DNA of 32,000 nucleotides from an uncultured archaeon (GTDB lineage Archaea; Asgardarchaeota; Thorarchaeia; Thorarchaeales; Thorarchaeaceae), in contig CAYHAA010000008.1 of assembly GCA_964354495.1 (NCBI GenBank), forward strand, positions 90,177-122,176, read 5' to 3'. The notes beneath the pieces are model-generated. The model saw only the letters and a list, made by a program, of their open reading frames with translations. It ran no database searches and was not told the DNA's origin. This document shows positions 1,946 through 27,640 of this stretch, in pieces. The position numbers and the translations under genes are program-made. Each line of letters begins with the position of its first letter. The stretch's first letter is position 1.

Positions 1946-2506
1946 ATGAAGACACTGATAGCATATGGGACACGATACGGAGCAACAGCCGGCACTGCTG
2001 AAGAGATCTCTAAAGTACTTCAGGAACAAGGACACGATGTCCGAGTAGTTGATGTGAAGAAGGACAAGATCAAGAGCATATCCGAATACGAACTAGTCAT
2101 CATAGGAAGTGGTATGAGGATCTTCAGGTGGGTCGGTGAAGCTGAGGAATTCATCAAGAAGTTTCAAGACGAACTAAGACAGAAGAAGACCGCGATATTT
2201 GTGTCGTCGGGCGCACAGGCGATTCACAAGCATGACAATGACACTGAATCGATGAATACCGCTTGGACGAAGTACCTTGACGAGAAGGCAGAGAAGTTCT
2301 CCCTTCGACCAATCATGATGGCAATCTTTGGCGGTGTCTGGGACTACAACAAGATGGGCTTTCCCTTCAAGAAGACCATGATGGCATTTCAGGAGAAGCT
2401 CAGAGAGGTTGGCATCGAAGAGACACATCCCGGTGTATATGACACGCGTGACTGGGAAGAGATCAGAAGCTGGGCAAGGGAGCTAGCGCAAAAAGCAAGC
2501 GGATGA
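1946..2506 (+). CDS. Flavodoxin-domain protein (HemG/Flavodoxin_5-like)
   Basis: N-terminal FMN-binding loop AYGTRYGATAGTAEEI, VIIGSG, and C-terminal DTRDWEEIRSWA typical of this family. Confidence 0.88.
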   Translation: MKTLIAYGTRYGATAGTAEEISKVLQEQGHDVRVVDVKKDKIKSISEYELVIIGSGMRIFRWVGEAEEFIKKFQDELRQKKTAIFVSSGAQAIHKHDNDTESMNTAWTKYLDEKAEKFSLRPIMMAIFGGVWDYNKMGFPFKKTMMAFQEKLREVGIEETHPGVYDTRDWEEIRSWARELAQKASG

Positions 2507-2601
2507 TCTTGGCTCATCCTGTGGCAGTTTCGTTGCGGGAGTCCGTAAGTCAGATATCTTTATCCTCTCCCTTGGGCAACGGTTTGGTGAGGTGCATTGA
2601 G

Positions 2602-3504
2602 TTGACAAGAGGACTAGTCTGCGTTGAGATCTATCTCCTCGCCGATGCAAATGTGCAGCTTGAAGAGGTCCTTGGAGAGGCTGGCTTCGCTGCGCTGGTC
2701 AGCGCGACGTACGACGATTCGAGTGAATTCCAGTTCCTCTTTGACACGGGTTATGGAACTCCCGCCTTAGAATATAATGCTTGTATCATGAAGAAATCTC
2801 ACAAACGAGACCTGTCCTCTATTGAGTTAATCATACTCAGTCATGGACATTGCGACCATGTGGCTGGAGTGCTGAAAGTCCTTTCACTGATCAAGAAACG
2901 AGTGCCTGTTCTATGTCATCCCGATGCGCTGCTGCACAAGATATTCACCTCTGATGATGGAAAGAAACACGAAGTCGGGATTCACGAGTACTATAGTGAC
3001 TCTGAACTCAGAAGCAGTGCTAGGGTCATTACAACCCAAAGACCCTATCACATTGCCGATGGTATCATGACTACAGGGGTTGTGCGGAGAACAAACGACT
3101 TTGAAGAAATCTCGGGCGAACTACGGAAGATTGTGACAGTAAGAAACGGAAAGGAAACACCTGACCTCATCGAGGACGACCTCTCGGTCATCTTTCACCT
3201 GAAGGATGGTTCAATTGTGATTCTTACAGGGTGTTGCCACTCTGGCATTGTGAACACAGTCAACCATGCGCTCTCGCTCACTGGTTCTTCATCTGTAGTC
3301 GGAATCGTGGGAGGCCTTCATCTTCATGATGCGTCAAGTGAGAGATTGAACAGCACTATTGAACATCTACGCAAATATCCCCTCTCCGTTCTTGGAGCCT
3401 GTCACTGTACAGGGCTGAGAGGCCGTGCTGCTCTCATGTACGCCTTCGAAGACTCCTTCAAGGAAGTGAGCGCAGGATCTCTGTTGAAGTTCCAGTCAAA
3501 ATAG
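2602..3504 (+). CDS. MBL-fold metallo-hydrolase (archaeal dihydropterin-ribofuranosyl-aminobenzene phosphate synthase-like family)
   Basis: Motifs LFDTG, SHGHCDHVAG (HxHxDH), EDDLS, TGCCHSG, GGLHL, HCTG. Start moved from 2503 to in-frame TTG 2602, which follows an SD-like GGTGAGGTG and precedes the first conserved strand (VEIYLLAD). Confidence 0.8.
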   Translation: MTRGLVCVEIYLLADANVQLEEVLGEAGFAALVSATYDDSSEFQFLFDTGYGTPALEYNACIMKKSHKRDLSSIELIILSHGHCDHVAGVLKVLSLIKKRVPVLCHPDALLHKIFTSDDGKKHEVGIHEYYSDSELRSSARVITTQRPYHIADGIMTTGVVRRTNDFEEISGELRKIVTVRNGKETPDLIEDDLSVIFHLKDGSIVILTGCCHSGIVNTVNHALSLTGSSSVVGIVGGLHLHDASSERLNSTIEHLRKYPLSVLGACHCTGLRGRAALMYAFEDSFKEVSAGSLLKFQSK

Positions 3505-3576: not shown

Positions 3577-5160
3577 CTACGAATGCATACCAAGCCCAAG
3601 TAGCATCTTGCATGTCTTGACTTGATTCTCTATGACCTTCGCCCTATGCAGGTTGTCAAAGAATACCTTGATGTGAGAGGTATAATTGTCCGACCTCTTG
3701 CCGCCATACTCTCCGAATATGTGCCCAGTATTCTCTAGGTCAACAACTCCATAGAGCAGCGAGAGCGACACTATGAGGTCAACGAGGCCCCTATCTGTTG
3801 TTTCCACCACCTGAGGAATCTCATTTGGCGGCTCAAGAATGAAGCACCCTACATTCCCTGCGTTTCTACAGTGGTCTTCCATCTGCAGGTCGGAAGAGAG
3901 CAGGGTGACAGTTGCCTGTTTATCTCTCGCAAACTCGCTTAGCGATTTCACAATGACTCTGTCTGCCTCTTCGGAATCATGAGGAAGTGGTTCGCACTTG
4001 GCTCTGTCATGAGTCGGCTGCTGCACGAGGAGGTGAAACTGAGAGCTAGCCATCTTGGCAATCCTTGTCTCAAGCGTGTTCCGATTGTGAAACTCGTCGA
4101 AGAAACGCCTCTTGTCAGGACCACTCATGGCTTTCACCGAGCCAATCCAGTCCTGTCCGTATTTGTCTGACACATTCCGGTCTATCTCTTGCACGACCCC
4201 TTCAGATGTGACGAAGAGAAGTTCTCCTCTGCGAATCTGATTGGCCGCCATCAAAGACTCAAGACATGACACAAATCCACTGTAAAACAGGTTTGAGTCT
4301 AATGAGATGTACCATCGCCCCGAAGCGTGTCTGGGGTCGCTCTGTCTCTTGTATCCCTCGACGAAGAACTTGCGGAACTCATCGCCTGATCTGTAGTCAA
4401 TGAGCCCCGCGTAGCAGAGTGAGGCACGTAGTTGTGAGTAACTAGGGTGGTCCCAACCTGTTTCACCACATTCTCTCAGGTCCTCGGAGTACTTTGCTCT
4501 GTCAGTCAGCATGTGGGCTTGTTTCTTAGATAGGTCCAGCTCCATGAGATCCATCTCCATGAGCGGATTCCTGACTTTCAGTCTGACATGCTCATTGTAC
4601 CCATAGTTCAGGACGACTGTTAAGAATTCCTTTGACATCTCCAGTCCTTGCCATCTGGTATCAGTCACACGGATTATGTCTTTTCTGCACTCTATGTTCT
4701 GAGCCAGGTCTCTCAGGAGCTGAATCCTCTTGGGTATCATGAGATAGGGCTTCGCGGCGTCCTCTGTGGACTCGATGGTCAAATAGTAGATGTGCTTGAG
4801 AAACTTGCCTGAGAATCCTAATAGACTACCTGCGACCAGTGCCTTTCTGCCACCAGTGATGTTCAATGCGACTTCGGAGCCGCTATCTTTGAGACTCTGG
4901 ATGATACGCTCTATCTCGTCCCGTGTTGCGCGCATATCGAAGTTGGGAACCCTGACCTTCTCTATGTTCCGCTCGCCATACTCCTCTTGGATTGTCTTCA
5001 TGCCCTCAACAACAGGATTGATATCACTCTCATACTGAGCCTCGTACAGGAGGATGATTCTGTCAGGTCTGAAGTCTGTTTCAAGCATGACTGCATGGTA
5101 GGAATTCACGACCCCCCAGCCGCTTCTGCCCATGAGTGTTACGAAGACCTGTTCCGTCAA
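3577..5160 (-). CDS. CARF domain fused to a PIN-type nuclease domain
   Basis: N-terminal ~155 aa Rossmann-like with VTLMGRS...PDRIILL and the CARF motif NITGGRK. C-terminal half has the PIN acidic tetrad pattern: ISLDSN (D), VVQEI (E), EADRVI (D), LSSD (D). TTG start with GGAGGAG upstream. Confidence 0.75.
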   Translation of the reverse strand: MTEQVFVTLMGRSGWGVVNSYHAVMLETDFRPDRIILLYEAQYESDINPVVEGMKTIQEEYGERNIEKVRVPNFDMRATRDEIERIIQSLKDSGSEVALNITGGRKALVAGSLLGFSGKFLKHIYYLTIESTEDAAKPYLMIPKRIQLLRDLAQNIECRKDIIRVTDTRWQGLEMSKEFLTVVLNYGYNEHVRLKVRNPLMEMDLMELDLSKKQAHMLTDRAKYSEDLRECGETGWDHPSYSQLRASLCYAGLIDYRSGDEFRKFFVEGYKRQSDPRHASGRWYISLDSNLFYSGFVSCLESLMAANQIRRGELLFVTSEGVVQEIDRNVSDKYGQDWIGSVKAMSGPDKRRFFDEFHNRNTLETRIAKMASSQFHLLVQQPTHDRAKCEPLPHDSEEADRVIVKSLSEFARDKQATVTLLSSDLQMEDHCRNAGNVGCFILEPPNEIPQVVETTDRGLVDLIVSLSLLYGVVDLENTGHIFGEYGGKRSDNYTSHIKVFFDNLHRAKVIENQVKTCKMLLGLGMHS

Positions 5161-5229
5161 GTCTCAATCTCCTCCAAATTCTTGGTAGGATTCCCAAAGC
5201 GTGTACTTGCAGAGGCTGACAACATCAGT

Positions 5230-6732
5230 CTATATCTCCAGAACGTCATCTCTCTTCATGACCATGACTTTTCGATGCCACTCTTTGAACATCTCGGGAT
5301 GTTCTGTGTGCATCGGTATCACTATCTCTGGTTTCACTCTCTCAATCAGATCTTTCAACTCACGCCCTGAGAGATGCCCTGAGCAGTGCTTCATCGCAGG
5401 TTCTCCAAGACCAAAGTGTTTCAACCATCTCTTGACCCGCTCGAGTTCTATCGCGCCCTCTTCGTCATAGGGTTCTGAGGCCGACCAGATGAACTTGCTG
5501 CCCTGTTTTGGCTTGAGATCATGAAGGATGCCCAAATCGTAGAAGCTGCATGTCACAACATACTCCTTCTGCGCGCTCGCCACTTCCTGCGGCGTCACCA
5601 GGACAGAGTCTTGAAACACATACTCTCTCACAGGTTCCGGATAGCTGTAGGAGTAATCCCGCAATTGCGCCTCCTCGTCGTAATCTGAATTCGCCCAGAT
5701 TCCCCATGACTTTCGAGGGAGCAATACCTCGATGTTCTTCGAGTCAACTGCAGGAATGTCCTTCGTCTGCAGCATCTTCGAGAGAAAATAGGCCTGCTTG
5801 GGGCTGATCAGTAGTTTCCGTCCACTGGCACGAGCAGCGTTACTGATTGTAACCATCCGGCTGATATCTCGTTGGGCGTAGTTCACAAGGACCAACGCCT
5901 TGGAGTCCTCGATCGTATCTGCCATTTCTTTCTCAAGGTTCTTCTCGGTCATGCCAGGCGCATCTTCTGCACGAGTGCCCTCACAGAGGAGCACTCTCAA
6001 GTTGGAATCCTCAAGTGCAGACGCGAACTCCTTTGATGATGAAGCAAAGTACCCATGAAACCTGAGGTCTCCTGTGTATGCGACAGCACCGCAGTCTGTG
6101 TTCAGAATATAAGCGTCCGCCCCTGGCAGGCTATGGTCGACCTGATACGCTGTCGCCTCGATGTTGCCGACTTTGAAAGACCTCTTGCGCTGCGTCTTGA
6201 CAAAGGGACGTTCGATCTTTTCATCTTCAACATCTGTCTTGGTCGCTCTCTTCAGACCCCCGCCCCTCTGTCGGGACGTCATCTTGAAGGACGGGTACCA
6301 GGTGCAAAACTCCTGTTCATCGCCCGTTATTGTTTCCTGCAGGTACTTCATGATGATCCATGTTGTTTCAGAGCCGACCAGCGTAATATCTGGTCGCAGA
6401 TATGGAACCATGCCGACATGGTCCATATGCGCATGGCTGATCAGGACTGCCTCAACGCTCTTCTTCTTACTAGACGCTAGGGCGGGATTAGATGAGTTCA
6501 TGTGTTCGAGATGGTCCTCACGGTAGATTCCCTTGACTGCAGGGAGAAGCCCGAATGAGATGTATTCCTCGATGATGGCGAAACCTCTAGCCCCAAGAAA
6601 CTCGTCGTAGTATTTTCTCTGTTGGCCAAAGCTGAGGCCGAAATCGAGGAAGACTCGCGTTCCGCCGTCCTCTATTAGAATCTTGTTTCCGCCAACCTCA
6701 TCGACTCCGCCATGAAATACGAACTTGGTCAT
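5230..6732 (-). CDS. MBL/beta-CASP ribonuclease, RNase J-like archaeal family
   Basis: FHGGVDEVGGNK, FLDFG, SHAHMDH, VDHS, YTGDLRFHG, LCEGT, HCSGH, PMHTEH form a full MBL plus beta-CASP motif set. True start is most likely ATG 6732 (codon 42 of the tracked ORF). Confidence 0.85.
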   Translation of the reverse strand: MTKFVFHGGVDEVGGNKILIEDGGTRVFLDFGLSFGQQRKYYDEFLGARGFAIIEEYISFGLLPAVKGIYREDHLEHMNSSNPALASSKKKSVEAVLISHAHMDHVGMVPYLRPDITLVGSETTWIIMKYLQETITGDEQEFCTWYPSFKMTSRQRGGGLKRATKTDVEDEKIERPFVKTQRKRSFKVGNIEATAYQVDHSLPGADAYILNTDCGAVAYTGDLRFHGYFASSSKEFASALEDSNLRVLLCEGTRAEDAPGMTEKNLEKEMADTIEDSKALVLVNYAQRDISRMVTISNAARASGRKLLISPKQAYFLSKMLQTKDIPAVDSKNIEVLLPRKSWGIWANSDYDEEAQLRDYSYSYPEPVREYVFQDSVLVTPQEVASAQKEYVVTCSFYDLGILHDLKPKQGSKFIWSASEPYDEEGAIELERVKRWLKHFGLGEPAMKHCSGHLSGRELKDLIERVKPEIVIPMHTEHPEMFKEWHRKVMVMKRDDVLEI

Positions 6733-6784
6733 ACTGCAAAGACCACTCTCCAACCAAGAGTGACATACAAGACCGTGACCTCCC

Positions 6785-6791
6785 ATATAAG
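6785..6791 (-). promoter_or_regulatory. Candidate TATA box for the beta-CASP / CARF-PIN pair
   Basis: CTTATAT on the minus strand, 53 nt upstream of ATG 6732, in the 145-nt gap after surE. Confidence 0.35.
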
Positions 6792-6877
6792 AAGTTCTGG
6801 TCGAACAAGACCGCTCTGTAGGAGAGACCTCATATGTGTCCGAAGGACTGCACATGCCCTCACGTCTATCGTTCGAG

Positions 6878-7672
6878 TCAGAGCAGGTCCTTGAGGAAGA
6901 GTCGCGTACGTTCAGTGTGCTCGGTCATGACGCTCCGAATGACGATAGGGGAGACAGTGATGTTACCGTTTCGAGAAACCTCCCTGGCATCATGACTTTC
7001 ATCCGAGAACTTCTCCCCGCCACGAATCCAGTAGCATGGCTTTTCGTAGGGATCAAGCCTTTTCTCTAGCTTGTTCCGTACAACAGCATTACTGGGTTCC
7101 ACGACCACCAGCCGACTCTGTCCTGAGTATGCCGCGGGGAAGTTCACGTTCAGGCCGTCAACACCAGAGGGCAGCCCCTGTTTCAGAACATGGCCTATGA
7201 GCCGGGCGCTCGTGTGGCATACATGTTCAACTCCCTCACTCACACCGGCTTCAGTGAACCAGTGGACCGGGTCCGCTAGGTAGGAGAGAGCGACACCTGG
7301 GTATCCCTGCAGGGCTGCTTCGAAGATGGCGCCGACTGTGCCGCTCGTGAGCATCCTGTGGTATCCGACATTTGCACCCGAGTTTATCCCTGAGACGAAC
7401 ATGTCGATTCTCTTGACCAATGAGAGGGCGATAATCACCGAGTCTGCAGGAAACCCGTCGTGGACTATCATGCGATAGCTGCCTGTATTCACGTCGCTCA
7501 CTATCCTGAGAGGCCGACCAAGCGACAGAGCCTTGCTGGCACCACTTCGCTGCTGGTTGGGGACCACCACAGTGAGGTCCATTTTGGGAGTCAGCGTTTC
7601 AGCTAGCCTAAGCAGGCCGATACTGCTTGGGCCATCATCATTTGTTAGGCAGACTGTAGGCATTGGTTCCAC
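6878..7672 (-). CDS. surE: 5'/3'-nucleotidase SurE
   Basis: LTNDDG, VVPNQQRSGAS, GFPAD, VSGINSGANVG, SGTVGA, LNVNFP are the canonical SurE motifs. Start is GTG 7672 or ATG 7663. Confidence 0.93.
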   Translation of the reverse strand: MEPMPTVCLTNDDGPSSIGLLRLAETLTPKMDLTVVVPNQQRSGASKALSLGRPLRIVSDVNTGSYRMIVHDGFPADSVIIALSLVKRIDMFVSGINSGANVGYHRMLTSGTVGAIFEAALQGYPGVALSYLADPVHWFTEAGVSEGVEHVCHTSARLIGHVLKQGLPSGVDGLNVNFPAAYSGQSRLVVVEPSNAVVRNKLEKRLDPYEKPCYWIRGGEKFSDESHDAREVSRNGNITVSPIVIRSVMTEHTERTRLFLKDLL

Positions 7673-8686: not shown

Positions 8687-11600
8687 ATGCAGAGTACGAA
8701 GCATGCCATAGTGGTACTTAGCGTGATCTTCATTTTCATGTTTGTAGTGTCTGACGTCTACACGGTTCAAGTCTGGTCCACTATGAAGGGGGCAGATCCC
8801 AACATACTTGAGAACGACACTGAGGCAGACATCGGCGCCCCAAGAGCAGCATTCTCACTTGCTAGCCTCGTGGAAGAGCTGATGTCAGTAACAACTGATA
8901 CCAGAGATGCCGACATTGACGGACTTGTCGATTCAATCGAGGCCATCATTGGCACCAGTCCAATCAATAATGATAGCGACTATGATAGGGTACGAGATGA
9001 TTTTGAGGTTTGGAATGGCACCGACCCATTGGAGCCTGACTCAAACTTCGATGGATTACCAGATTACTTTGAGCTGAAGGCAACAAATCCGGATGTCGAT
9101 GGCGATGGAGTCGACAATGCTTGGGATTTTGATAATGACAATGATGGCGTCAATGACGCAGCTGACATATCTCCCTTCTGTTATTCTGCTGTGCAGGACA
9201 GCTTCCATATGGAGATCGTGACTGGCGGCAATCCCACATATGTCACTCTCCAACTAAGACCACGCGACCCGGCACACCTCAAGTTGTTCTACCAATATTG
9301 GGATTGGCCTTACGACTCTCAGGGTTCTATGAAAGATATGGACTATTCAGAAGAGGACGTCAGAGCAATTCCACAACTCAATATTGCTACTGACAGCTCT
9401 CTAAGTCAGTCAGCCGTGAGCGACTATGGAATGCTTGTGACGCCAACTGGCTTCCGTATTCCCCTGAATCCCATATGGGATAATGGTGATCTGCTAGCAT
9501 TCGAGTGCAAGATATTCTTCCCGCAGTCTGCTCAGACGAGTTGGGCCATTGATATTGATATGTTTTGGAGAATTATGGGAAATACAGACATTGAGGCTGT
9601 AGCACTCGGTGCCAGCAATGGTATGTATGTAGTCCTTGGAGAAAACAATTCTGCAATCGCTGATGGTGATAATGCTCACGCTGGAACTCTACAATGGATT
9701 GACTTGGGCGATGGTAATGTCTCAATCAAGACCTTCAATGGAGCATACCTGTCACTGGCAGACAATACTACAATTGGTGTTTCGTCCATCCTTGACGATA
9801 ATGCTAGATTTGCAGTGACAGAAGTAGATGACGAAATCGCGCTCAAGGCAATCAATGGACTGTACATCACACTAAGCGAAGATAATCACCTTCTTGCTCA
9901 AGGCGATAACCTCTCTGAAGCAGAGAGATTTCATATTGTTGATTTAGGCTACCAATCAGAATGGACAACACTGGTCACATACCCTGAACCATTCATGCTC
10001 GCTGGATTCACAGTCGAAGAGAACTTTGGCTCCAATCTCGGACTATTCTATAGCTCGAACAGGGATTGTATTATCGCAGCTGACATGGTGATGACATACG
10101 AGTTCATGAGGAATGCCACGAACCTGCTAACGGACCAGTCAGGTATCCTTGCTAACAACGGCATTGACGTGGATAGCCTCTCTTCATCATTCACGCATAG
10201 AGATGAGGCATTCAAGAGCATGAGTAATGACATGCTGCCCGATGTGCTTAGGTCCCTGCCCGATGGCGAAATTCTCCCAGTCATCATTGCAAACATCGAC
10301 CGCTCACGAATTCTAGAGATGTCTGAGATTCTCTCTGGCGTGATGACGCTTGACGACTCGTTTTTCCTCAACGTCACCAGATTCCCTGTTCTGACTGTCA
10401 GGACTCTCAAAACGAATTTCTATAATACATCCAGCTTCGGAGCTCTAGCGCTCGATGATGTTATGTCTGAAGTGGTCAGCTGGGGCCTAAGTGATACAGC
10501 AACTTTCAATATCCTGACCATGATGATGAAGTGGTTTAATGGAGAGCAACTCGTTACAAGCATCGATGATATTCCATTGTCATTCGGAACGCCAGATGAT
10601 GAATGCTTCAACATGGCACAGAATATCATAATTGGTAGTCTAGAAGCATTAGGCGGTCTCTCTGAAATAGTATGGATCTGGAAAGCATTCAAAGAGATGA
10701 AGGTCCTAGAAAAAGGTGGCTTCGTGTTCAACTCAATAGTAAGGTCTCTTAAGACTGGGAGCACGAGCCTGATCGGAGCCTGGGCGAAGACGAGCACGAG
10801 CCTTGCGAAGATCAACAAGGGCTTCACAAAGGCTTTCAAATCGTTCCAAAAGGCCCTAATCGTAGCCGGGATTGTTCTCGACGTGGGCCTTTCAATCTAT
10901 GCGGCTATACTGATTGCTGATAGCATTGGAGGTCGCTTAGGATCTGAGATTGGAGCCATATATGGTGTAGCGGGCGCTGCGTTCGCAGTTGTTGGCGCAC
11001 TCCTTCTCTTTGCCATCGGGGAGATACCTTATGTGGGATGGCTAATTGCTTTGGGGCTTGTCCTTGCAGACTTGATTGGCGGCTACTCGGACAAGCTCAT
11101 AGAATGGCTCACCGGAGCTATATTCGGTGATCAGGAGGATGTGCACAAAGTTGAGCTTGCTGATCCTGGGATTGAGGTTGTGAGACCACCATCAGCGACA
11201 ACCATTGACCATGATGGGAACGGTCTTGATGTAGGAGATACAATCGAGATCATCGTGCGTTTCCGCGCAACAGTAGAGGACACAGTCAATAGTACAATTC
11301 CAGTGGACAGCTACATTAGACCATACATTCAGCTCTTCGTACCTCAGGGCGAGGTTTCATCTTCTGGATACCCTGCTGTAGATGACATGAAAGTGGAGAA
11401 GGGCGATTTCTGGAAATCAGAGACCTATGACACAGCTGCGTGGGCAACGCCCAGTCTGCCAATGGTGAATTTTCCAGTTCTGGTGTTGCTCAAGTATGAT
11501 TACAGACTTCGTTATGATTGGCGACACTTAGTCATGGGCATGGCATACTGCGATCATACAGACTGGGAGGAGGGCTCTGGTGTCGAACAACTGACTAGAT

Positions 11601-14600
11601 ATCACTTCGATATCATGCCACAGACAATTGATGACTTTGTGAGATGGGGCGGAATCAGGTTGCTTGACTCTGATGCAGATGAGTTGAAGGACTCTGAAGA
11701 GTCCTCAACAGATGTATGGAAGTACGATTCAGATGGGGACAGCCTTCGAGACAAGTACGAAATCGACTACGGCCTGGACCCGAATAATTTCGATAGTGAC
11801 GAGGATGGGCTCAGCGATAAATGGGAGCTTGTCTATGGCACTAATGCGACAATGCGTGATAGTGATGTTGACGGACTTCCAGACTATGCTGAAATTGCCG
11901 GCTGGAACATCGAGTTCAACTACACTCAGACCGAAGGTTCCGTGATTATTCCATTCACTACTCACATGTACTCGGATCCACGGAACAATGACAGTGATGC
12001 GGATGGGATCAATGACTTCATAGAATACCAGAGTGGTCTCAATCCCCAATCAAAAGACACTGATGGCGACTCTGTCTTTGATCAACCTGCTCCAGAGACC
12101 GAGACGCTGGTAGAGGAAATCTGGCAAAGGTCTGTAGGACCCACAAACGGCTTCGACGTTGACTACTGGGGCAACATACATTGCGGCTACGCATCGACCT
12201 CAGGCTCATCGATCTGGAAATTCAACCCAGGTGGGGAGGCCATCCTTAATTATGGCGCTGGGGAACTCACTCTACCAATGGCTCTAGCTACGGGAAATCA
12301 AGACACTGTCTATGTTCAGGACTGGAATATCCCCTCGATCATCCCCAAAATCTCTTTGCCCACTTATACTAACAGCATCTACCCGGCTATTGCCCTTACT
12401 CGAGATGGTAGTAGACTGGCAGTTGGCTCAAGGTATGATGATACGGTTTGGATCTATAATCGGGTCGGTTCAGAGTGGATCCTAGAGAGCACGCTTTTTT
12501 CAACAGCAGGTTCTGAGAACTTTGGGTGTTCTCTTGCATTCAGTGCGGATGGAAACACACTTGTTGTTGGAGCGCATTTGCGTGATGTTGCTTCGTTCAG
12601 TAATGGAGCCGCATATGTCTATACCAGATCTGGAACCGAATGGACTCTGAATTCTTTCCTCTCTGTATCAGACGCACACACATACCACTTCGGCTATGCA
12701 GTGGCAATTGCTGGCTCAGGAAGTATAGTTGTGGTCGGTCAGGAACGAAATATCTACATCTATGTCTATCAGAATGGGGGATATACCTTCTGTCGGAGAT
12801 ACACGGTTCCAACCACGAACAGAATTGTATCCTCTATAGCTGTCAGTGATAATGGCGCTAAGATCGCAGTGGGTGCAGAGTACCTCTATTCTGGTTCTTC
12901 TGAAGAGGCAAAGGTCTTTGTCTATGAGTACAACGGAGCAGTAGCTCAGTGGATACCTTATGAGCTGACGAGTGCAGATAGAGTCGCTGGAGACCAGTTT
13001 GGTCATGATGTTTCAATCGATAGCTCGGGCAGCATCATAGCTGCTGGCGCGCCGCACTATTCTGACCAGGGAAAAGGACCTGGATCAGTATACATCTTCA
13101 CAAAGGATGCCACATCCAATCCATGGTCACAGTCACAGATAGAAAGAACAAGACTAACAGATCCAACCGGTCGTACAGACTATTGTTTTGGGTTTTCAGT
13201 GAGGCTCAATCCAGTCGGTGATCATGTTCTAATTGGTTCACCAGGAAGAGGAAGAGGCGCAATGTTCGTCTTTGAAGAGTGTGACTCCACATGGGTGCCG
13301 CTCTCCTGGATAGATCCAATATTGGAGTCTGCGCACGGCAATTTTGGTTATTCTGTGGCAATCGATTCTACAGCGAGCCGATTGATGGGAGCTGCCATTC
13401 AGACTGATATAACTCAACCAATGCCTGTCTTTGAGTTCTCAACTGCCCCTGACCGGATAGTACGCTTTGATTCCGATGGGACAAATGCAGGAGTGTTCCT
13501 TCCCAGTCTAGCATGGGGATATTCTGCTTGGTATACGTCAGTATTTGGCATGACATCAGATTCGGATGGCTACTTGTACGTGTCATACGATGATACGGTC
13601 ATTGCGGGCATCCGAAAATACGCTCCCTCTGGTGAGTTGGTTAGCTTCATCGGTGGTGGCTGGCTTTCTCGTCCATACGGTATGGCCATTGATAATGATG
13701 GAAATATCTACGTGGCTGATAGGGGGAACAACGATGTTCTGAAGTTCTCCCCTGCTGGAGAACTGATGCCAACACCTTGGTCTGGATTCTCGGAACCTAG
13801 AGCCGTGGATGTGGACTCAGAAGGCAATATCTACGTCGCTGACACAGGAAACAATCGTGTGCTTGTGTTTGATGAAAATGGAATCCCTGTTACGTCATTC
13901 TCTTTCCCTTCGCCTATGGCGCTAAGACTGGACGACGATGGCAATCTGTATGTCGCAACTTGGGACAGACTTGCAAGGTACAGAGTCTATGAAGTATACG
14001 TTGAGATCGAACCACCAAGCGAATCCATTGACTGGGACGAGGACGGACTCATCAACGACGTAGAAACTGCAGGCTGGGACATAGTCTACGTGACCTCTGA
14101 TGGAACCTGGTTCGCTCATGTTGATAGCAGTCCGAATCAGGAAGATACTGATCTTGATGGGCTCTCCGACCTACAAGAATGGGAGCTGGGTAGTAATCCA
14201 CGATTGGGGGACACCGACAAGGATGGGTTGGATGACCACTTCGAATGGTCAAATGGCCTAAACATTACAGACTTCGATACCGATGGAGAAATGCTGGATG
14301 ATGGTACAGAGTTGACCTTTGGTAGCAGTCCTCTTCTACGAGATACAGACTTTGATGGCACAGATGACCACATCGAGTTCTTACACGGCACCAATCCACT
14401 GGCGATTGACACTGATCGTGATGATGCGAATGACACTGAGGAATTGAGGGTTGGGTCAGAGCCGCTCTCACCCGACTCAGACAGTGACTTTGTCTTTGAT
14501 GGTGCTGAACTTGACCAAGGCACAGATCCTGTCAATGGTGATAGTGATGCGGACTTCATCGAAGATGGTCTAGAAGGCATCATGGGCACTAACCCACTCT

Positions 14601-16186
14601 CTAATGATACAGATGGGGACAATGTGACGGATTTCGTGGAGATTGCTCTGGGTCTCAATCCTGTATCAAATGACACAGACGGAGATAATATCCCGGACAA
14701 TGTTGAGCTGATAGGGGGTACGAACCCTCGGAGCAATGACACAGACAATGATGGCATTCCAGATGGTCTTGACTCAGACTCACTATCCGATATCTCCGGT
14801 CGAATAATCCTCGTCTGTGATGACCTCAGTGACCCAGAAGTTGCGGCATTTGTTGACAACGTAATGGAATATCACAATGCAATCATTACGGATAGAGAAG
14901 GCCTTCTGGCCAACTATACAGATGACCCCTGGATTGTATTGATAGGAGCGCCCTCGCCCGATAATGAAACCGTGGGCAATCTCATTTTCACTCTGTTAGA
15001 AGACTCTCCGGATGTGTTGCAAGCCATGATAGAATCCGGTGGGAACCACATCGCTGTAAGATATGGAGTATGGAATGAGACTCAGACGGTCGTCATGCTC
15101 TCACAGGTGACGCCTCAAGATGTCTATCCTGTTCTTCAAGCATTAAAGGAGAAGAACGTCACCCTGAATGGGGACACTATCATTGTTGAGTTTCCATTAC
15201 TCACTAATACAGAGCATATTGTGAACATCTTTCTGCAACTTGATGACATTGACGTAGTGAAGACGACCGATTCAATGGCAATGGTGGCGTTCACAGAACC
15301 GGTACAACCGACATTCATTATGAGAGCCTATAATGAGTCTACGACTCCCTCTCAGCTAACAGATGCAACTGGGTTGGAAACTTACAGTGAACCTATGGGC
15401 AAGTATCTTGAGATCGACCTGAGTATTGAGGGGTCTGGTGATGCACCGGTTGACTCAGCGATAATAAGGATTTACTACAGGGAATCCGAGCTTGACCGAA
15501 CCGGCGATGAACTGGCAACTGATATTGAGGACCTCAATGAGACCACTCTTGCTCTCTACTTCTATGATGAGGCTGCTGGACTGTGGATCAGACTCCATGA
15601 GGGTCTTGATTGGGTCATAGCCACTGGTGTGAACACCACTGATGTGTATCTCTATGGCGAAGTCTATGCTGGATATGTCTGGGCGCATGTGCGACACCTC
15701 TCACTGTACAGCATCGCTGGCATGACGCACAATCGTCCCCCCGATGTCTCAGGCGCGTATCCGAGCATCGAGTTCCTCTGGCCGCCGAACGGAAGATTCG
15801 CCGGTATAACGATAGAGGGTGTCTTTGACCCAGATGGTGACAATGTGACCATCACGATACTGAACATAACAAGTGATGAGTCTGTTGGATGTCGCCCAGA
15901 TGCATATGGGGTGGGCACTGATACCGCTTGGCTTCGAGCTGAGAGAGATGGACGTGGCAATGGTAGGGTCTACGAGATCACTTTCTTGGCCTCTGATGGG
16001 CGAGGAGGTGAAACAGTGAGTTCAGTGTTCGTCTATGTACCGCACCACAGGCACAGATGTGGCTTTGTGATACCCATAGATGACGGACAGAACTACGACG
16101 CCACTCAAGGATGGCGTCCCATACACTGGCGATGGTGGCACTGCTTTGGCTTCCGGCATTGTCATGGCTGTCATAGACTCAGGTAG
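8687..16186 (+). CDS. Giant secreted mosaic protein (2499 aa): signal peptide, TSP3-like Ca-binding repeats, fascin-like beta-trefoil, hydrophobic helical segment, FG-GAP propeller, NHL repeats, archaeal surface-protein domain, WPPN Ig-like domain
   Basis: Hydrophobic N-terminus. About 22 DxDxDGxxD-type repeats in three blocks (~8900-9170, ~11660-12080, ~14030-14780). Three x-L-K/G-x-x-N-G-x-Y units (~9600-9950). F-G-x-S/A-V/L-A-I repeats (~12370-13420). P-x-G/A-x-A-x-D-x-D/E-GNIYVAD-x-GN repeats (~13450-13990). C-terminal LWPPN...LRAERDG...GRVY. SD GAGGGAGAG upstream. Confidence 0.88.
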   Translation: MQSTKHAIVVLSVIFIFMFVVSDVYTVQVWSTMKGADPNILENDTEADIGAPRAAFSLASLVEELMSVTTDTRDADIDGLVDSIEAIIGTSPINNDSDYDRVRDDFEVWNGTDPLEPDSNFDGLPDYFELKATNPDVDGDGVDNAWDFDNDNDGVNDAADISPFCYSAVQDSFHMEIVTGGNPTYVTLQLRPRDPAHLKLFYQYWDWPYDSQGSMKDMDYSEEDVRAIPQLNIATDSSLSQSAVSDYGMLVTPTGFRIPLNPIWDNGDLLAFECKIFFPQSAQTSWAIDIDMFWRIMGNTDIEAVALGASNGMYVVLGENNSAIADGDNAHAGTLQWIDLGDGNVSIKTFNGAYLSLADNTTIGVSSILDDNARFAVTEVDDEIALKAINGLYITLSEDNHLLAQGDNLSEAERFHIVDLGYQSEWTTLVTYPEPFMLAGFTVEENFGSNLGLFYSSNRDCIIAADMVMTYEFMRNATNLLTDQSGILANNGIDVDSLSSSFTHRDEAFKSMSNDMLPDVLRSLPDGEILPVIIANIDRSRILEMSEILSGVMTLDDSFFLNVTRFPVLTVRTLKTNFYNTSSFGALALDDVMSEVVSWGLSDTATFNILTMMMKWFNGEQLVTSIDDIPLSFGTPDDECFNMAQNIIIGSLEALGGLSEIVWIWKAFKEMKVLEKGGFVFNSIVRSLKTGSTSLIGAWAKTSTSLAKINKGFTKAFKSFQKALIVAGIVLDVGLSIYAAILIADSIGGRLGSEIGAIYGVAGAAFAVVGALLLFAIGEIPYVGWLIALGLVLADLIGGYSDKLIEWLTGAIFGDQEDVHKVELADPGIEVVRPPSATTIDHDGNGLDVGDTIEIIVRFRATVEDTVNSTIPVDSYIRPYIQLFVPQGEVSSSGYPAVDDMKVEKGDFWKSETYDTAAWATPSLPMVNFPVLVLLKYDYRLRYDWRHLVMGMAYCDHTDWEEGSGVEQLTRYHFDIMPQTIDDFVRWGGIRLLDSDADELKDSEESSTDVWKYDSDGDSLRDKYEIDYGLDPNNFDSDEDGLSDKWELVYGTNATMRDSDVDGLPDYAEIAGWNIEFNYTQTEGSVIIPFTTHMYSDPRNNDSDADGINDFIEYQSGLNPQSKDTDGDSVFDQPAPETETLVEEIWQRSVGPTNGFDVDYWGNIHCGYASTSGSSIWKFNPGGEAILNYGAGELTLPMALATGNQDTVYVQDWNIPSIIPKISLPTYTNSIYPAIALTRDGSRLAVGSRYDDTVWIYNRVGSEWILESTLFSTAGSENFGCSLAFSADGNTLVVGAHLRDVASFSNGAAYVYTRSGTEWTLNSFLSVSDAHTYHFGYAVAIAGSGSIVVVGQERNIYIYVYQNGGYTFCRRYTVPTTNRIVSSIAVSDNGAKIAVGAEYLYSGSSEEAKVFVYEYNGAVAQWIPYELTSADRVAGDQFGHDVSIDSSGSIIAAGAPHYSDQGKGPGSVYIFTKDATSNPWSQSQIERTRLTDPTGRTDYCFGFSVRLNPVGDHVLIGSPGRGRGAMFVFEECDSTWVPLSWIDPILESAHGNFGYSVAIDSTASRLMGAAIQTDITQPMPVFEFSTAPDRIVRFDSDGTNAGVFLPSLAWGYSAWYTSVFGMTSDSDGYLYVSYDDTVIAGIRKYAPSGELVSFIGGGWLSRPYGMAIDNDGNIYVADRGNNDVLKFSPAGELMPTPWSGFSEPRAVDVDSEGNIYVADTGNNRVLVFDENGIPVTSFSFPSPMALRLDDDGNLYVATWDRLARYRVYEVYVEIEPPSESIDWDEDGLINDVETAGWDIVYVTSDGTWFAHVDSSPNQEDTDLDGLSDLQEWELGSNPRLGDTDKDGLDDHFEWSNGLNITDFDTDGEMLDDGTELTFGSSPLLRDTDFDGTDDHIEFLHGTNPLAIDTDRDDANDTEELRVGSEPLSPDSDSDFVFDGAELDQGTDPVNGDSDADFIEDGLEGIMGTNPLSNDTDGDNVTDFVEIALGLNPVSNDTDGDNIPDNVELIGGTNPRSNDTDNDGIPDGLDSDSLSDISGRIILVCDDLSDPEVAAFVDNVMEYHNAIITDREGLLANYTDDPWIVLIGAPSPDNETVGNLIFTLLEDSPDVLQAMIESGGNHIAVRYGVWNETQTVVMLSQVTPQDVYPVLQALKEKNVTLNGDTIIVEFPLLTNTEHIVNIFLQLDDIDVVKTTDSMAMVAFTEPVQPTFIMRAYNESTTPSQLTDATGLETYSEPMGKYLEIDLSIEGSGDAPVDSAIIRIYYRESELDRTGDELATDIEDLNETTLALYFYDEAAGLWIRLHEGLDWVIATGVNTTDVYLYGEVYAGYVWAHVRHLSLYSIAGMTHNRPPDVSGAYPSIEFLWPPNGRFAGITIEGVFDPDGDNVTITILNITSDESVGCRPDAYGVGTDTAWLRAERDGRGNGRVYEITFLASDGRGGETVSSVFVYVPHHRHRCGFVIPIDDGQNYDATQGWRPIHWRWWHCFGFRHCHGCHRLR
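14030..14780 (+). repeat. Tandem coding repeat block: about 11 Ca-binding DTDxDG-type units with ~23-aa period
   Basis: DWDEDGLIND, DTDLDGLSD, DTDKDGLDD, DTDGEMLDD, DTDFDGTDD, DTDRDDAND, DSDSDFVFD, DSDADFIED, DTDGDNVTD, DTDGDNIPD, DTDNDGIPD, most followed by E-x-x-x-G-T/S-N/D-P. Confidence 0.85.
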
Positions 16187-26867: not shown

Positions 26868-27127
26868 AATGGCGCGTTAGATATGAAGATAAACATACGC
26901 AGGCGCTTGATGAAGGGAATCATTTCTATACTCGGAAAGTGCCGGTTTATAGACGGGCAGTGGACCATTTGACACTCCGTCCTCATCTGCAATGACAATC
27001 GCTATAATATGCCCGGACCATACTGGACAATGGTAAGTCATTTTGACCAAGATTAGGGTATGAGGCAGCTGCGCCGAGTAGTTTCCGCGCTATGATATAT
27101 ATAATAGCAGTTTATTCACTTGAAAGT

Positions 27128-27640
27128 ATGAAAGAGAAATCCAAGTTTTCAGTTACATTCAAAGACGAGTCAATTGTAGAGCTTGTGAAAAAGACTGACC
27201 AAAAAACATTAGCCATGTGGGCAGTCGATTGTGTCGAGCGTGTCATGCCATACTTTGAGGAAAAGTACCCAGAAGACCCCCGCCCCCGAAAAGCTATTGA
27301 AACGCTCCGAAAATGGATACATACCGGGACATTCAAGATGGCAGATGTACGCAAAGCTGCACTTGATGCTCATGCGGCGGCTCGCGAGGTAGGAGAAGAT
27401 ACTGCTGCTCGCTCTGCTGCCCGCGCCGCAGGTCAAGCGGTGGCAACTGCACATGTTCCTACTCATTCCATTGGTGCTGCAAATTATGTCTTGCAGGCTA
27501 TTCATAGAACCGCCAGCTCCTCTGATGCCGGTGCTGCCATAGCCAAAGAACGAGATTGGCAGTACAAGCACTTGCTTGAATTGGGGAATAGCCATGAGAG
27601 ATCAACGCGTGAAACACCGGAAGGAGATGAACAGAAATGA
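27128..27640 (+). CDS. Imm5-like putative immunity protein
   Basis: LAMWAVDCVERV...PEDPRPRKAIE...W...AHAAAR...AARAAGQAVATAHV..H pattern of the Imm5-like helical family. Start moved to ATG 27128. Confidence 0.7.
   Translation: MKEKSKFSVTFKDESIVELVKKTDQKTLAMWAVDCVERVMPYFEEKYPEDPRPRKAIETLRKWIHTGTFKMADVRKAALDAHAAAREVGEDTAARSAARAAGQAVATAHVPTHSIGAANYVLQAIHRTASSSDAGAAIAKERDWQYKHLLELGNSHERSTRETPEGDEQK

Follow-up and report, generated by a model that had tools for sequence, protein, structure and literature searches.

The window analysed here is a stretch of 32,000 nucleotides from a Thorarchaeota genome of 3.3 Mb that is 97.7% complete. The locus described in this study consists of three minus-strand genes, which encode a SurE paralog, an RNase J-like beta-CASP protein and a CARF-linker-PIN fusion. 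The genes and features in the window are as follows:

3577-5160, minus strand: CARF-PIN fusion, 527 aa, with a TTG start codon
3577-4320, minus strand: PIN nuclease domain with a conserved C-terminal extension (residues 281-527), plus the stop codon
4321-4680, minus strand: middle/linker domain (residues 161-280), modelled; matched among solved structures by SiRe_0806 only
4681-5160, minus strand: CARF domain (residues 1-160), with motifs MGRSGW (10-15) and NITGGRK (100-106)
5161-5229, minus strand: spacer of 69 nt, with GGAGG at 5171-5175, 10 nt before the TTG start of CARF-PIN
5230-6732, minus strand: RNase J-like beta-CASP metallo-hydrolase, 500 aa, with Lactamase_B_2 and RMMBL domains
6785-6790, minus strand: candidate TATA-like hexamer TTATAT, 53 nt upstream of the beta-CASP ATG, found by sequence inspection
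6878-7672, minus strand: module-linked paralog of the 5'/3'-nucleotidase SurE (Pfam SurE), with a likely ATG start at 7663

The original prediction placed the beta-CASP and CARF-PIN genes head-to-tail on the minus strand, 69 nt apart, and the gap at 5161-5229 is exactly of this length. The reading frame of the beta-CASP gene is open as far as 6855 (541 aa at 5230-6855, minus strand), and we take the MTKF codon at 6732, where every homologue begins, as its first, which gives a protein of 500 aa. Judged from its letters and position, the TTATAT hexamer is a plausible candidate for a promoter TATA box. Rfam and tRNA scans found no RNA genes in the window. The cassette is flanked in the window by housekeeping-like genes rather than by a defence island, and the flanking genes in the window and at two further loci (L002 and L003) include those for ribosomal proteins, eIF2-gamma and sugar metabolism. 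When 11 genomes of the same genus were compared as possible empty sites, no common synteny was found around their counterparts of the adjacent MBL gene (333 aa), so the insertion boundaries of the cassette are not definable in this way.

The fusion protein belongs to a catalogued family, CARF_m1-PIN. It matches the PADLOC profile CARF_m1--CARF (PDLC01971) with an E-value of 5.4e-40 and the PADLOC-DB profile CARF_m1--CARF_PIN (PDLC01973), which has the same CARF-linker-PIN architecture, with 7.2e-34 over its full length (residues 4-496). Pfam alone would leave the protein unassigned, because every match to the Pfam CARF models is below threshold. A classification of CARF domains is reportedly given by Makarova et al. 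2020. The structural model of the fusion supports the predicted N-terminal CARF domain: residues 1-120 are modelled by AF2 with a pLDDT of about 90, and this predicted domain superimposes on Csm6, Can2 and Card1 with VIA Z-scores of 12.7-13.4, about 13, and rmsd values of 2.2-2.5 A. Both the model and the motifs reveal the Rossmann-like fold of a CARF domain, in which ligand loops follow beta-1 and beta-4. The NITGGRK motif was said to be intact, and it is, at residues 100-106; the GRSGW and ITGGRK motifs are invariant among homologues, and the invariant positions of the domain are G11, R12, W15, N19, T102 and K106. In the middle/linker domain (residues 161-280) the pLDDT ranges from 54 to 95. 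The PIN region of the model (residues 282-452) matches the PIN domain 3i8o with a VIA Z of 10.6, the PIN domain of an archaeal RuvB-like helicase with 8.4-8.7 and that of Rrp44 with about 8. All four acidic positions that had been described as intact, D288, E325, D400 and D424, show no substitution among 29 homologues, fused and split, whose identities range from 20 to 34%, and the same four are also kept in 25 full-length homologues. N290, K333, R366 and G487 of the PIN part are likewise invariant in fused and split members. In the cassette proteins as a whole, the catalytic and ligand-loop residues are invariant among family members at 20-90% identity.

The second protein contains Lactamase_B_2 and RMMBL domains, and its AF2 model (pLDDT 92.7) shows an MBL fold with an inserted beta-CASP domain. 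MBL motifs 1-4 and beta-CASP motifs A-C are all present, and the residues of HxHxDH (H100, H102, D104 and H105) as well as H200, D222, E251, H449/H453 and H475 are invariant in 27 homologues. The fold, the metal and beta-CASP motifs and the C-terminal RMMBL motif are shared with RNase J (J1/J2 and Mpy-RNase J, PDB 5haa) and with EF2904 (2az4). Foldseek matches the model to 2az4 with an E-value of 5e-29 and to bacterial and archaeal RNase J with 1e-24 to 1e-26 (TM 0.6-0.7, and 0.6-0.78 over RNase J and EF2904 together); the aCPSF1 and CPSF73 classes rank behind both. However, the protein shares only 14-19% identity with the solved RNase Js, and its scores against TIGR00649, the RNase J subfamily (5e-21, 74.7 bits, cut-off 400), and NF047419 (63.8 bits, cut-off 820) are far under the family cut-offs. 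For this reason we name it RNase J-like and not RNase J. It belongs to a separate subfamily of archaeal proteins, about 500 aa in length, one branch of which is operon-linked to CARF-PIN.

The third gene extends the locus beyond what was originally predicted. Its product matches Pfam SurE with an E-value of 1.9e-40 and TIGR00087 with 150.4 bits, above the curated equivalog cut-off of 135.1, and the metal-binding motifs NDDG, QRSG and SGINSGA (SGINxGA) are intact. The host genome carries a second, housekeeping SurE on another contig (C1), away from the cassette, and in the tree the module-linked SurEs are set apart in a clade of their own, supported at 100/100. The cassette SurE is a divergent, dedicated and module-specific nucleotidase paralog. 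In other phyla the phosphatase slot that SurE fills in the Thorarchaeota cassette is occupied by a HAD phosphatase, a non-homologous displacement which argues that the phosphomonoesterase step is needed. SurE and HAD-IA enzymes dephosphorylate nucleotides. The two-nuclease module of the original prediction thus stands as a pair, but its two-gene extent does not, since the locus is a cassette of three or four components that include a dedicated phosphatase, of the SurE type in the window and of the HAD type in other lineages.

The gene linkage is directly observed in several lineages. The beta-CASP gene lies directly upstream of CARF-PIN at all orthologous Thorarchaeota loci for which sequence is available, and the pairing, whose conservation the original prediction had made a point to check, is found in Methanomicrobia and Nitrososphaerota as well, where the arrangement is beta-CASP, CARF, PIN and HAD phosphatase. 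Both fused and split forms of CARF-PIN occur in the family. MBL-CARF-PIN-HAD operons with overlapping genes are present in one Methanobacteriota MAG and one Nitrososphaerota MAG, and CARF-PIN-HAD is present in Methanoculleus and Methanolinea; in Methanoculleus no beta-CASP gene was found within 10 kb of CARF-PIN. At four or five Thorarchaeota loci no SurE was found within 1.5 kb, and in family f23 the neighbours of CARF-PIN are RACo and an epimerase. The cassette is therefore not universal within its CARF-PIN clade. The beta-CASP and CARF-PIN genes share one patchy phyletic pattern, being present in 9-10 of the 86 genomes of the family, and the cassette occurs in 3 of the 28 genomes of the genus. 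Some loci have defence-like neighbours, namely two AIPR genes, a type IIG restriction-modification gene and a PD-(D/E)xK and SNF2 pair.

This distribution bears on the possibility that the cassette is no defence system but a metabolite-regulated housekeeping operon for RNA turnover and nucleotide salvage. Its CARF domain would sense a normal cellular nucleotide or the end of an RNA, for instance fragments with a 2',3'-cyclic phosphate, as RtcR does, and its three enzymes would return damaged or excess RNA to use. RtcR is an example of a CARF domain that senses RNA ends outside CRISPR. The housekeeping genes that flank the cassette in the window and at L002 and L003 agree with such a role, as does the breadth of the beta-CASP family, which is widespread in archaea and in many of them a stand-alone gene, so that it could have a general role in RNA processing. 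Nevertheless, a presence in so few genomes of the family and the genus is the pattern of an accessory gene, the cassette duplicates a function that the housekeeping SurE already provides, and several loci adjoin Abi, restriction-modification or nuclease genes. We consider a housekeeping role rather unlikely.

Like Csm6/Csx1 and Can2/Card1, the fusion protein joins a CARF sensor to a nuclease effector. Its effector is a PIN domain, whereas those of Csm6/Csx1 and Can2/Card1 are HEPN or PD-(D/E)xK domains, and unlike these proteins the cassette has no genomic link to Cas10 and is predicted to have dedicated exonuclease and nucleotidase partners. Beyond the CARF core, the best whole-chain structural match is SiRe_0806 of Sulfolobus islandicus (Foldseek E 3e-13; VIA Z 16.8 for an alignment of 323 residues that spans positions 65-523 of the model), although the two share only 12-13% sequence identity and SiRe_0806 is about 110 residues shorter. 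SiRe_0806 has been solved in the apo form (PDB 9jxw) and with cA4 (9jxx), and since it was crystallised with cA4 this architecture is able to bind cA4. The organism that carries SiRe_0806 has type III systems, in contrast to the host of the cassette. Our literature searches found no paper on SiRe_0806 or 9jxx, nor any on a CARF-PIN/beta-CASP operon.

The only PDB sequences matched by the family profile are those of the Crn1 ring nucleases Sso2081 and Sis0455 (CARF_m13; E 4e-4), which align with the CARF domain model with VIA Z-scores of 10.6-11.1. In the profile alignment with Sso2081, S13 of CARF-PIN corresponds to S11 and the ITGGRK motif, including K106, is identical, so the Crn1 residues are present; Ser11 and Lys106 of Sso2081 are presumably its catalytic residues. 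Crn1 proteins, however, are stand-alone CARF proteins of about 180 aa with no effector domain, whereas the protein here is a PIN fusion of 527 aa. This likeness raises the possibility that the cassette serves mainly to clear a signal, a cyclic or linear oligoadenylate: the CARF domain would cleave cA4 or a similar ligand in the manner of a Crn1 ring nuclease, the beta-CASP protein and the nucleotidase would finish the linear products to adenosine as an off-switch or a protection from foreign signals, and the PIN domain would be a minor or regulated output. A nucleotidase would suit the final clean-up step, and MBL-fold enzymes such as phage Apyc1 hydrolyse cyclic nucleotides. Several observations count against it. 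There would be nothing to clear, as no known synthase was found in 15/16 genomes; strict conservation of the PIN catalytic residues would be unexpected in a mere appendage; the MBL protein, being RNase J-like with RMMBL, is an RNA enzyme and not Apyc1-like; and CARFs that do not cleave commonly bind their ligand through Ser and Lys as well. We therefore regard a signal-clearing role as improbable.

The original prediction reported no cas10, CD-NTase, cas1 or CRISPR array in the 32 kb and called for a search of the rest of the genome, and their absence holds in the window and across the 3.3-Mb genome, where we found no Cas10 (by three models), mCpol, GGDEF, SMODS, Cas1 or CRISPR array. Nor was a Csa3-like CARF-wHTH regulator found in the host genome, in which the matches were to the HTH part alone, plus CARF-PIN itself. 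Comparison of family members reveals that CARF_m1-PIN falls into two clades, told apart by their motifs. Clade A, to which the cassette belongs, has the motifs GRSxW and DITGGRK and is linked to beta-CASP and phosphatase genes, whereas clade B has the motifs TTVGxxxF and DMTPGRKFM and is located in type III-D CRISPR loci. The PDLC01973 profile lumps both clades. Cas10 is present in 5/7 clade-B genomes, and in genome G117 distant split relatives adjoin a 64-repeat array and a III-D operon. By contrast, a Cas10 match was found in 1/16 clade-A genomes, a count that comprises Cas10 palm matches in one of the nine cassette-bearing Thorarchaeota genomes (G331), in 0/3 other Asgard clade-A genomes and in 0/4 non-Asgard cassette genomes; the counted genomes are relatives, so that such counts are not independent, and the calls of absence are weakened by MAG incompleteness, except in near-complete genomes. 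Thus the sister clade has the type III association expected of a cOA-pathway effector, and the cassette in the window does not.

These results leave little room for a conventional type III ancillary effector that receives cA4 in trans from a Cas10 complex elsewhere in the genome or in its unassembled part. In its favour, CARF_m1--CARF_PIN is a catalogued family, no solved structure is closer than the cA4-bound SiRe_0806, clade-B relatives lie inside type III-D loci and one cassette-bearing genome, G331, has a Cas10 match; yet no Cas10, Cas1, mCpol or array was found in this 97.7%-complete genome, Cas10 is missing from 8/9 cassette-bearing Thorarchaeota and from 7/7 other clade-A genomes tested, and clade A has a distinct ligand-loop signature. 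Taken together, such a role appears highly improbable. Activation in trans by a CRISPR system, one of the two options of the original prediction, is accordingly unlikely, because 15/16 clade-A genomes have no Cas10 match, while its other option, the sensing of a different nucleotide, gains some support from the clade-specific changes in the CARF ligand loop.

The explanation that we tentatively favour is that the locus encodes a ligand-gated RNA-demolition cassette, which comes from the type III ancillary effector family CARF_m1-PIN and has a Cas10-independent trigger; it resembles an effector of CRISPR signalling that has been rewired to run without CRISPR. The cassette would derive from type III effectors, given the clade-B relatives at III-D loci, with Cas10 in five of seven genomes, and the cA4-bound SiRe_0806 as the closest structure. 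We infer its ligand, the order of its reactions and its biological role as follows. A small nucleotide or an RNA-end ligand, which would not come from a known cOA synthase of the genome, may bind the dimeric CARF domain and turn on the PIN endoribonuclease, which would cut cellular or invader RNA and leave 5'-phosphate ends, as PIN nucleases do. RNase J prefers 5'-monophosphate substrates, and the RNase J-like beta-CASP protein would chew the PIN fragments 5'-to-3' to mononucleotides. The dedicated nucleotidase, SurE here or a HAD phosphatase in other phyla, would then dephosphorylate the mononucleotides, and the outcome would be an irreversible demolition of RNA to nucleosides, for defence or stress-induced dormancy. 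It is possible, if somewhat doubtful, that clade A with its RNase J-like and nucleotidase partners forms an autonomous immune or stress system that extends over three or more archaeal phyla, the Asgard archaea among them, and that its remodelled CARF pocket, with the invariant Arg12 and Trp15, reads a ligand not made by Cas10, such as an RNA-damage product or a virus-derived nucleotide.

To our knowledge, nearly all that is understood of CARF effectors concerns their role as outputs of the cyclic oligoadenylates made by Cas10. Clade A would be a well-conserved group of CARF nucleases that has moved out of CRISPR loci, altered its ligand loop and gained its own predicted exonuclease and nucleotidase, a route by which a CRISPR accessory became a stand-alone system in archaea, among them the Asgard relatives of eukaryotes. 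If the autonomous reading is true, CARF signalling would have a branch that is independent of CRISPR and contains its own pathway from RNA to nucleosides, and the clade-A ligand, once identified, would reveal further molecules sensed by CARF domains. The wiring of an endonuclease, an exonuclease and a nucleotidase also offers a testable model of programmed RNA and nucleotide depletion, and as the cassette proteins are small and soluble-looking and have confident models, the question is directly open to biochemistry. A SatD cyclase-like gene was considered as the signal source and rejected as a dedicated partner, because it is present in only 4/9 cassette genomes and in 27/77 others. This gene lies about 7 kb from the cassette in the window and about 3 kb from it at L003, in genome G392.

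Re-reading of the open reading frames confirms the coordinates and the 69-nt spacing that the original prediction assigned to a beta-CASP gene and a CARF-PIN fusion gene, and its NITGGRK motif and four PIN acidic residues are likewise correct. The predicted pair stands, but a module of two genes is too small, because a module-linked SurE or HAD phosphatase also belongs to it. In the window the cassette is arranged as follows.

6878-7672, minus strand: SurE nucleotidase gene, in the same orientation as the beta-CASP and CARF-PIN genes
5230-6732, minus strand: MBL/beta-CASP protein, 500 aa, starting at the MTKF codon as in all homologues
Between the beta-CASP and CARF-PIN genes, minus strand: 69-nt spacer with a GGAGG box
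3577-5160, minus strand: CARF-PIN protein, 527 aa, TTG start

The beta-CASP frame is open to 6855, beyond the MTKF start at 6732, and the TTG start of CARF-PIN is supported by homologues that are uniformly ~527 aa with the same start position. Facing the CARF-PIN gene, in convergent orientation, is a second, unrelated MBL-fold gene of 333 aa (2503-3504, plus strand), with orthologues in 17 of 27 same-genus genomes (53-72% identity), never with the same neighbours. The window also encodes a protein of 2499 aa that contains FG-GAP, NHL and TSP3-type repeats (8687-16186, plus strand) and a 182-aa Imm5-like putative immunity protein (27092-27640, plus strand; PF21805 at 2.8e-44), for which no obvious toxin partner is found among the scanned ORFs.

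The Pfam matches of the CARF-PIN protein to CARF and PIN models all stay below threshold, and PADLOC profiles that stem from the CARF classification match it strongly (CARF_m1--CARF at 5e-40; CARF_m1--CARF_PIN over residues 4-496 at 7e-34). An AlphaFold2 model, for which 25 homologues were used, has a mean pLDDT of 87.8. Over residues 1-120 it matches the CARF domains of Csm6, Can2 and Card1 (Z 12.7-13.4, rmsd 2.2-2.5 A), which supports the predicted N-terminal CARF domain, and over residues 282-452 it fits PIN domains (3i8o, Z 10.6; the Rrp44 PIN domain, Z ~8). SiRe_0806 of S. islandicus, crystallised with cA4, fits all of the chain that lies beyond the CARF core (Z 16.8, 323 residues). In relatives with 20-34% identity, whether fused or split, G11, R12, W15, N19, T102 and K106 are invariant in the CARF part, as are D288, N290, E325, K333, R366, D400 and D424 in the PIN part, so that, judged from these key residues, both domains look functional. 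The sole match of the family profile among PDB sequences is the Crn1 ring nuclease Sso2081, in which Ser11 lies opposite S13 of CARF-PIN and both proteins share the ITGGRK stretch, Lys106 included. A cassette for signal clearing, in which a CARF ring nuclease, then the MBL protein and then the nucleotidase would act in turn, seems to us distinctly improbable.

The beta-CASP protein contains Lactamase_B_2 and RMMBL domains, and every MBL and beta-CASP motif is invariant among 27 homologues. Its match to the RNase J subfamily model (5e-21) falls far under that model's cut-off, and the structure nearest to its predicted fold (pLDDT 92.7) is EF2904 (2az4, E 5e-29), followed by bacterial and archaeal RNase J (E 1e-24 to 1e-26, TM 0.6-0.7), with aCPSF1/CPSF73 behind these. 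We class the protein as RNase J-like and not as RNase J itself. Its relatives form a broad family of ~500-aa archaeal proteins (Bathyarchaeota, Altiarchaeota, DPANN, Methanobacterium, Nitrososphaera), which stand alone in M. paludis and one Bathyarchaeota MAG. The host is a Thorarchaeota (Asgard) MAG whose genome has two SurE genes: that on contig C1 clusters with the single SurE of 25 other genus members, those where SurE was found, and that adjoining the module clusters, with 100/100 support, with SurE genes upstream of beta-CASP in other Thorarchaeota, where 7-8 of ~12 loci have one. The module SurE clears the curated SurE threshold and retains its metal-binding motifs. Beyond the Asgard archaea the system takes split forms: beta-CASP / CARF / PIN / HAD-IA phosphatase, in which stop and start codons overlap, is found in two MAGs, one of Methanobacteriota (Methanoregulaceae-like) and one of Nitrososphaerota, and Methanoculleus and Methanolinea have CARF-PIN/HAD or CARF/PIN/HAD. 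That one lineage has SurE and others a HAD phosphatase unrelated to it suggests non-homologous displacement, which argues that a phosphomonoesterase step belongs to the system. The analysis establishes what the domains are, that their active sites are intact, that the genes stay linked and that the cassette does not depend on Cas10. We tentatively favour ligand-gated RNA demolition, a pathway we infer as a whole and put at slightly under an even chance: ligand bound by CARF would switch on PIN, which would cut RNA to leave 5'-P ends; the RNase J-like enzyme would degrade these 5'-to-3' to NMPs, and SurE or HAD would remove their phosphate. Whatever probability lies beyond the four readings weighed here belongs to some explanation not considered.

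The lack of Cas10, CD-NTase, Cas1 and arrays that the original prediction noted for the window holds genome-wide: the 3.30 Mb, 97.7%-complete host genome gives zero matches to Cas10 (TIGR02577, TIGR02578, PF22335), mCpol, GGDEF, SMODS and Cas1, and no CRISPR-like array by k-mer scan. Within the family, 12 of 86 genomes have a Cas10 palm match, yet just 1 of the 9 cassette carriers does. A cyclase-like SatD gene lies ~3.3 kb ahead of the window start (G000:C8:86488-86910 of the host) and another at 2332-2952 of locus L003, 3-7 kb from the cassette in these two genomes; as a candidate synthase it was rejected, since genomes of the family have it irrespective of whether they carry the cassette. 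When grouped by their two CARF ligand loops, the loci all fall cleanly into two sets. Clade A, the branch found in the window, has [LM]GRSxW and DIT[GSP]GRK and holds every beta-CASP-, HAD- or SurE-linked locus; its sister, clade B, has TTVGxxxF and DMTPGRKFM. Cas10 was found in 1 of 16 clade A and 5 of 7 clade B genomes, counts that are indicative, not statistical, because the genomes are related and many are incomplete; among the clade A carriers outside the family it gave no match (0 of 3 other Asgard and 0 of 4 non-Asgard genomes). Distant CARF+PIN pairs (~25% identity) do occur in CRISPR loci. In the closed Asgard genome G117 (C1:2676000-2695900) a split CARF_m1 and PIN pair sits between an array and a type III-D operon (two Cas7-IIId, Csx19, Cas5-IIId, a 508-aa Cas10 and Csx1), and in G196 Cas10 lies 6 kb from the pair. 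The G117 array has at least 64 copies of a 37-nt repeat, CTTTCAATCC...GCAAG, with a second short repeat pair at 7147-7243 of that locus. Classical trans-activation by a Cas10 that escaped detection is, on these distributions, very improbable. The invariant Arg12 and Trp15 of clade A fall in the loop lining the CARF pocket of known structures, which would fit an altered ligand; the question of the ligand is directly testable. Catalogues already list CARF-PIN effectors and the CARF_m1 profiles, and a published account names PIN RNases among cOA-activated effectors (PMC12669027). In the searchable literature, a Cas10-independent clade equipped with an exonuclease and a nucleotidase of its own, whose neighbourhood Makarova et al. 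2020 may mention, appears uncharacterised, as do the clade A ligand-loop signature and the fused, SurE-bearing form in Thorarchaeota.

Among the 85 other genomes of the GTDB family, 10 carry CARF-PIN, two of them as fragments only, and 9 have a beta-CASP orthologue, the ninth match being interrupted by a contig end. The pairing is kept elsewhere: in the neighbourhood survey beta-CASP is immediately upstream in 8 of 8 family genomes with full-length CARF-PIN, and the split operons of the Methanobacteriota and Nitrososphaerota MAGs keep it too. Both genes are single-copy in the host genome; they are co-inherited accessory genes. Only 3 of 28 genomes of the genus are carriers, and a housekeeping RNA-turnover operon under metabolite regulation is in our view unlikely. 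The genes flanking the cassette in the window are ordinary metabolic genes. Some other loci have defence-type neighbours, as with the AIPR genes of L001 and the restriction-modification gene of G282 described below, and with a PD-(D/E)xK and SNF2 pair at locus L007. The closest long metagenomic relative (L001, 57% identity) has Mre11/Rad50-like genes upstream of the cassette and two tandem AIPR (abortive-infection) genes directly downstream (9911-13899). One Thorarchaeota MAG, G334, has two CARF-PIN copies (C3:914436-916005 and C7:124134-126530): one is interrupted near residue 300 (in-frame TGA or frame break) and lacks beta-CASP within 1.5 kb; the other, which has an upstream beta-CASP gene, runs into a contig end. 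A second copy in G392 is N-terminally truncated. In another Asgard family a RACo (corrinoid activator) gene follows the clade A CARF and PIN genes in G280 (C1:428000-442000) and G282 (C213); in G280 a beta-CASP homologue sits between RACo and an epimerase, and in G282 the CARF gene and a type IIG restriction-modification gene are in divergent orientation.
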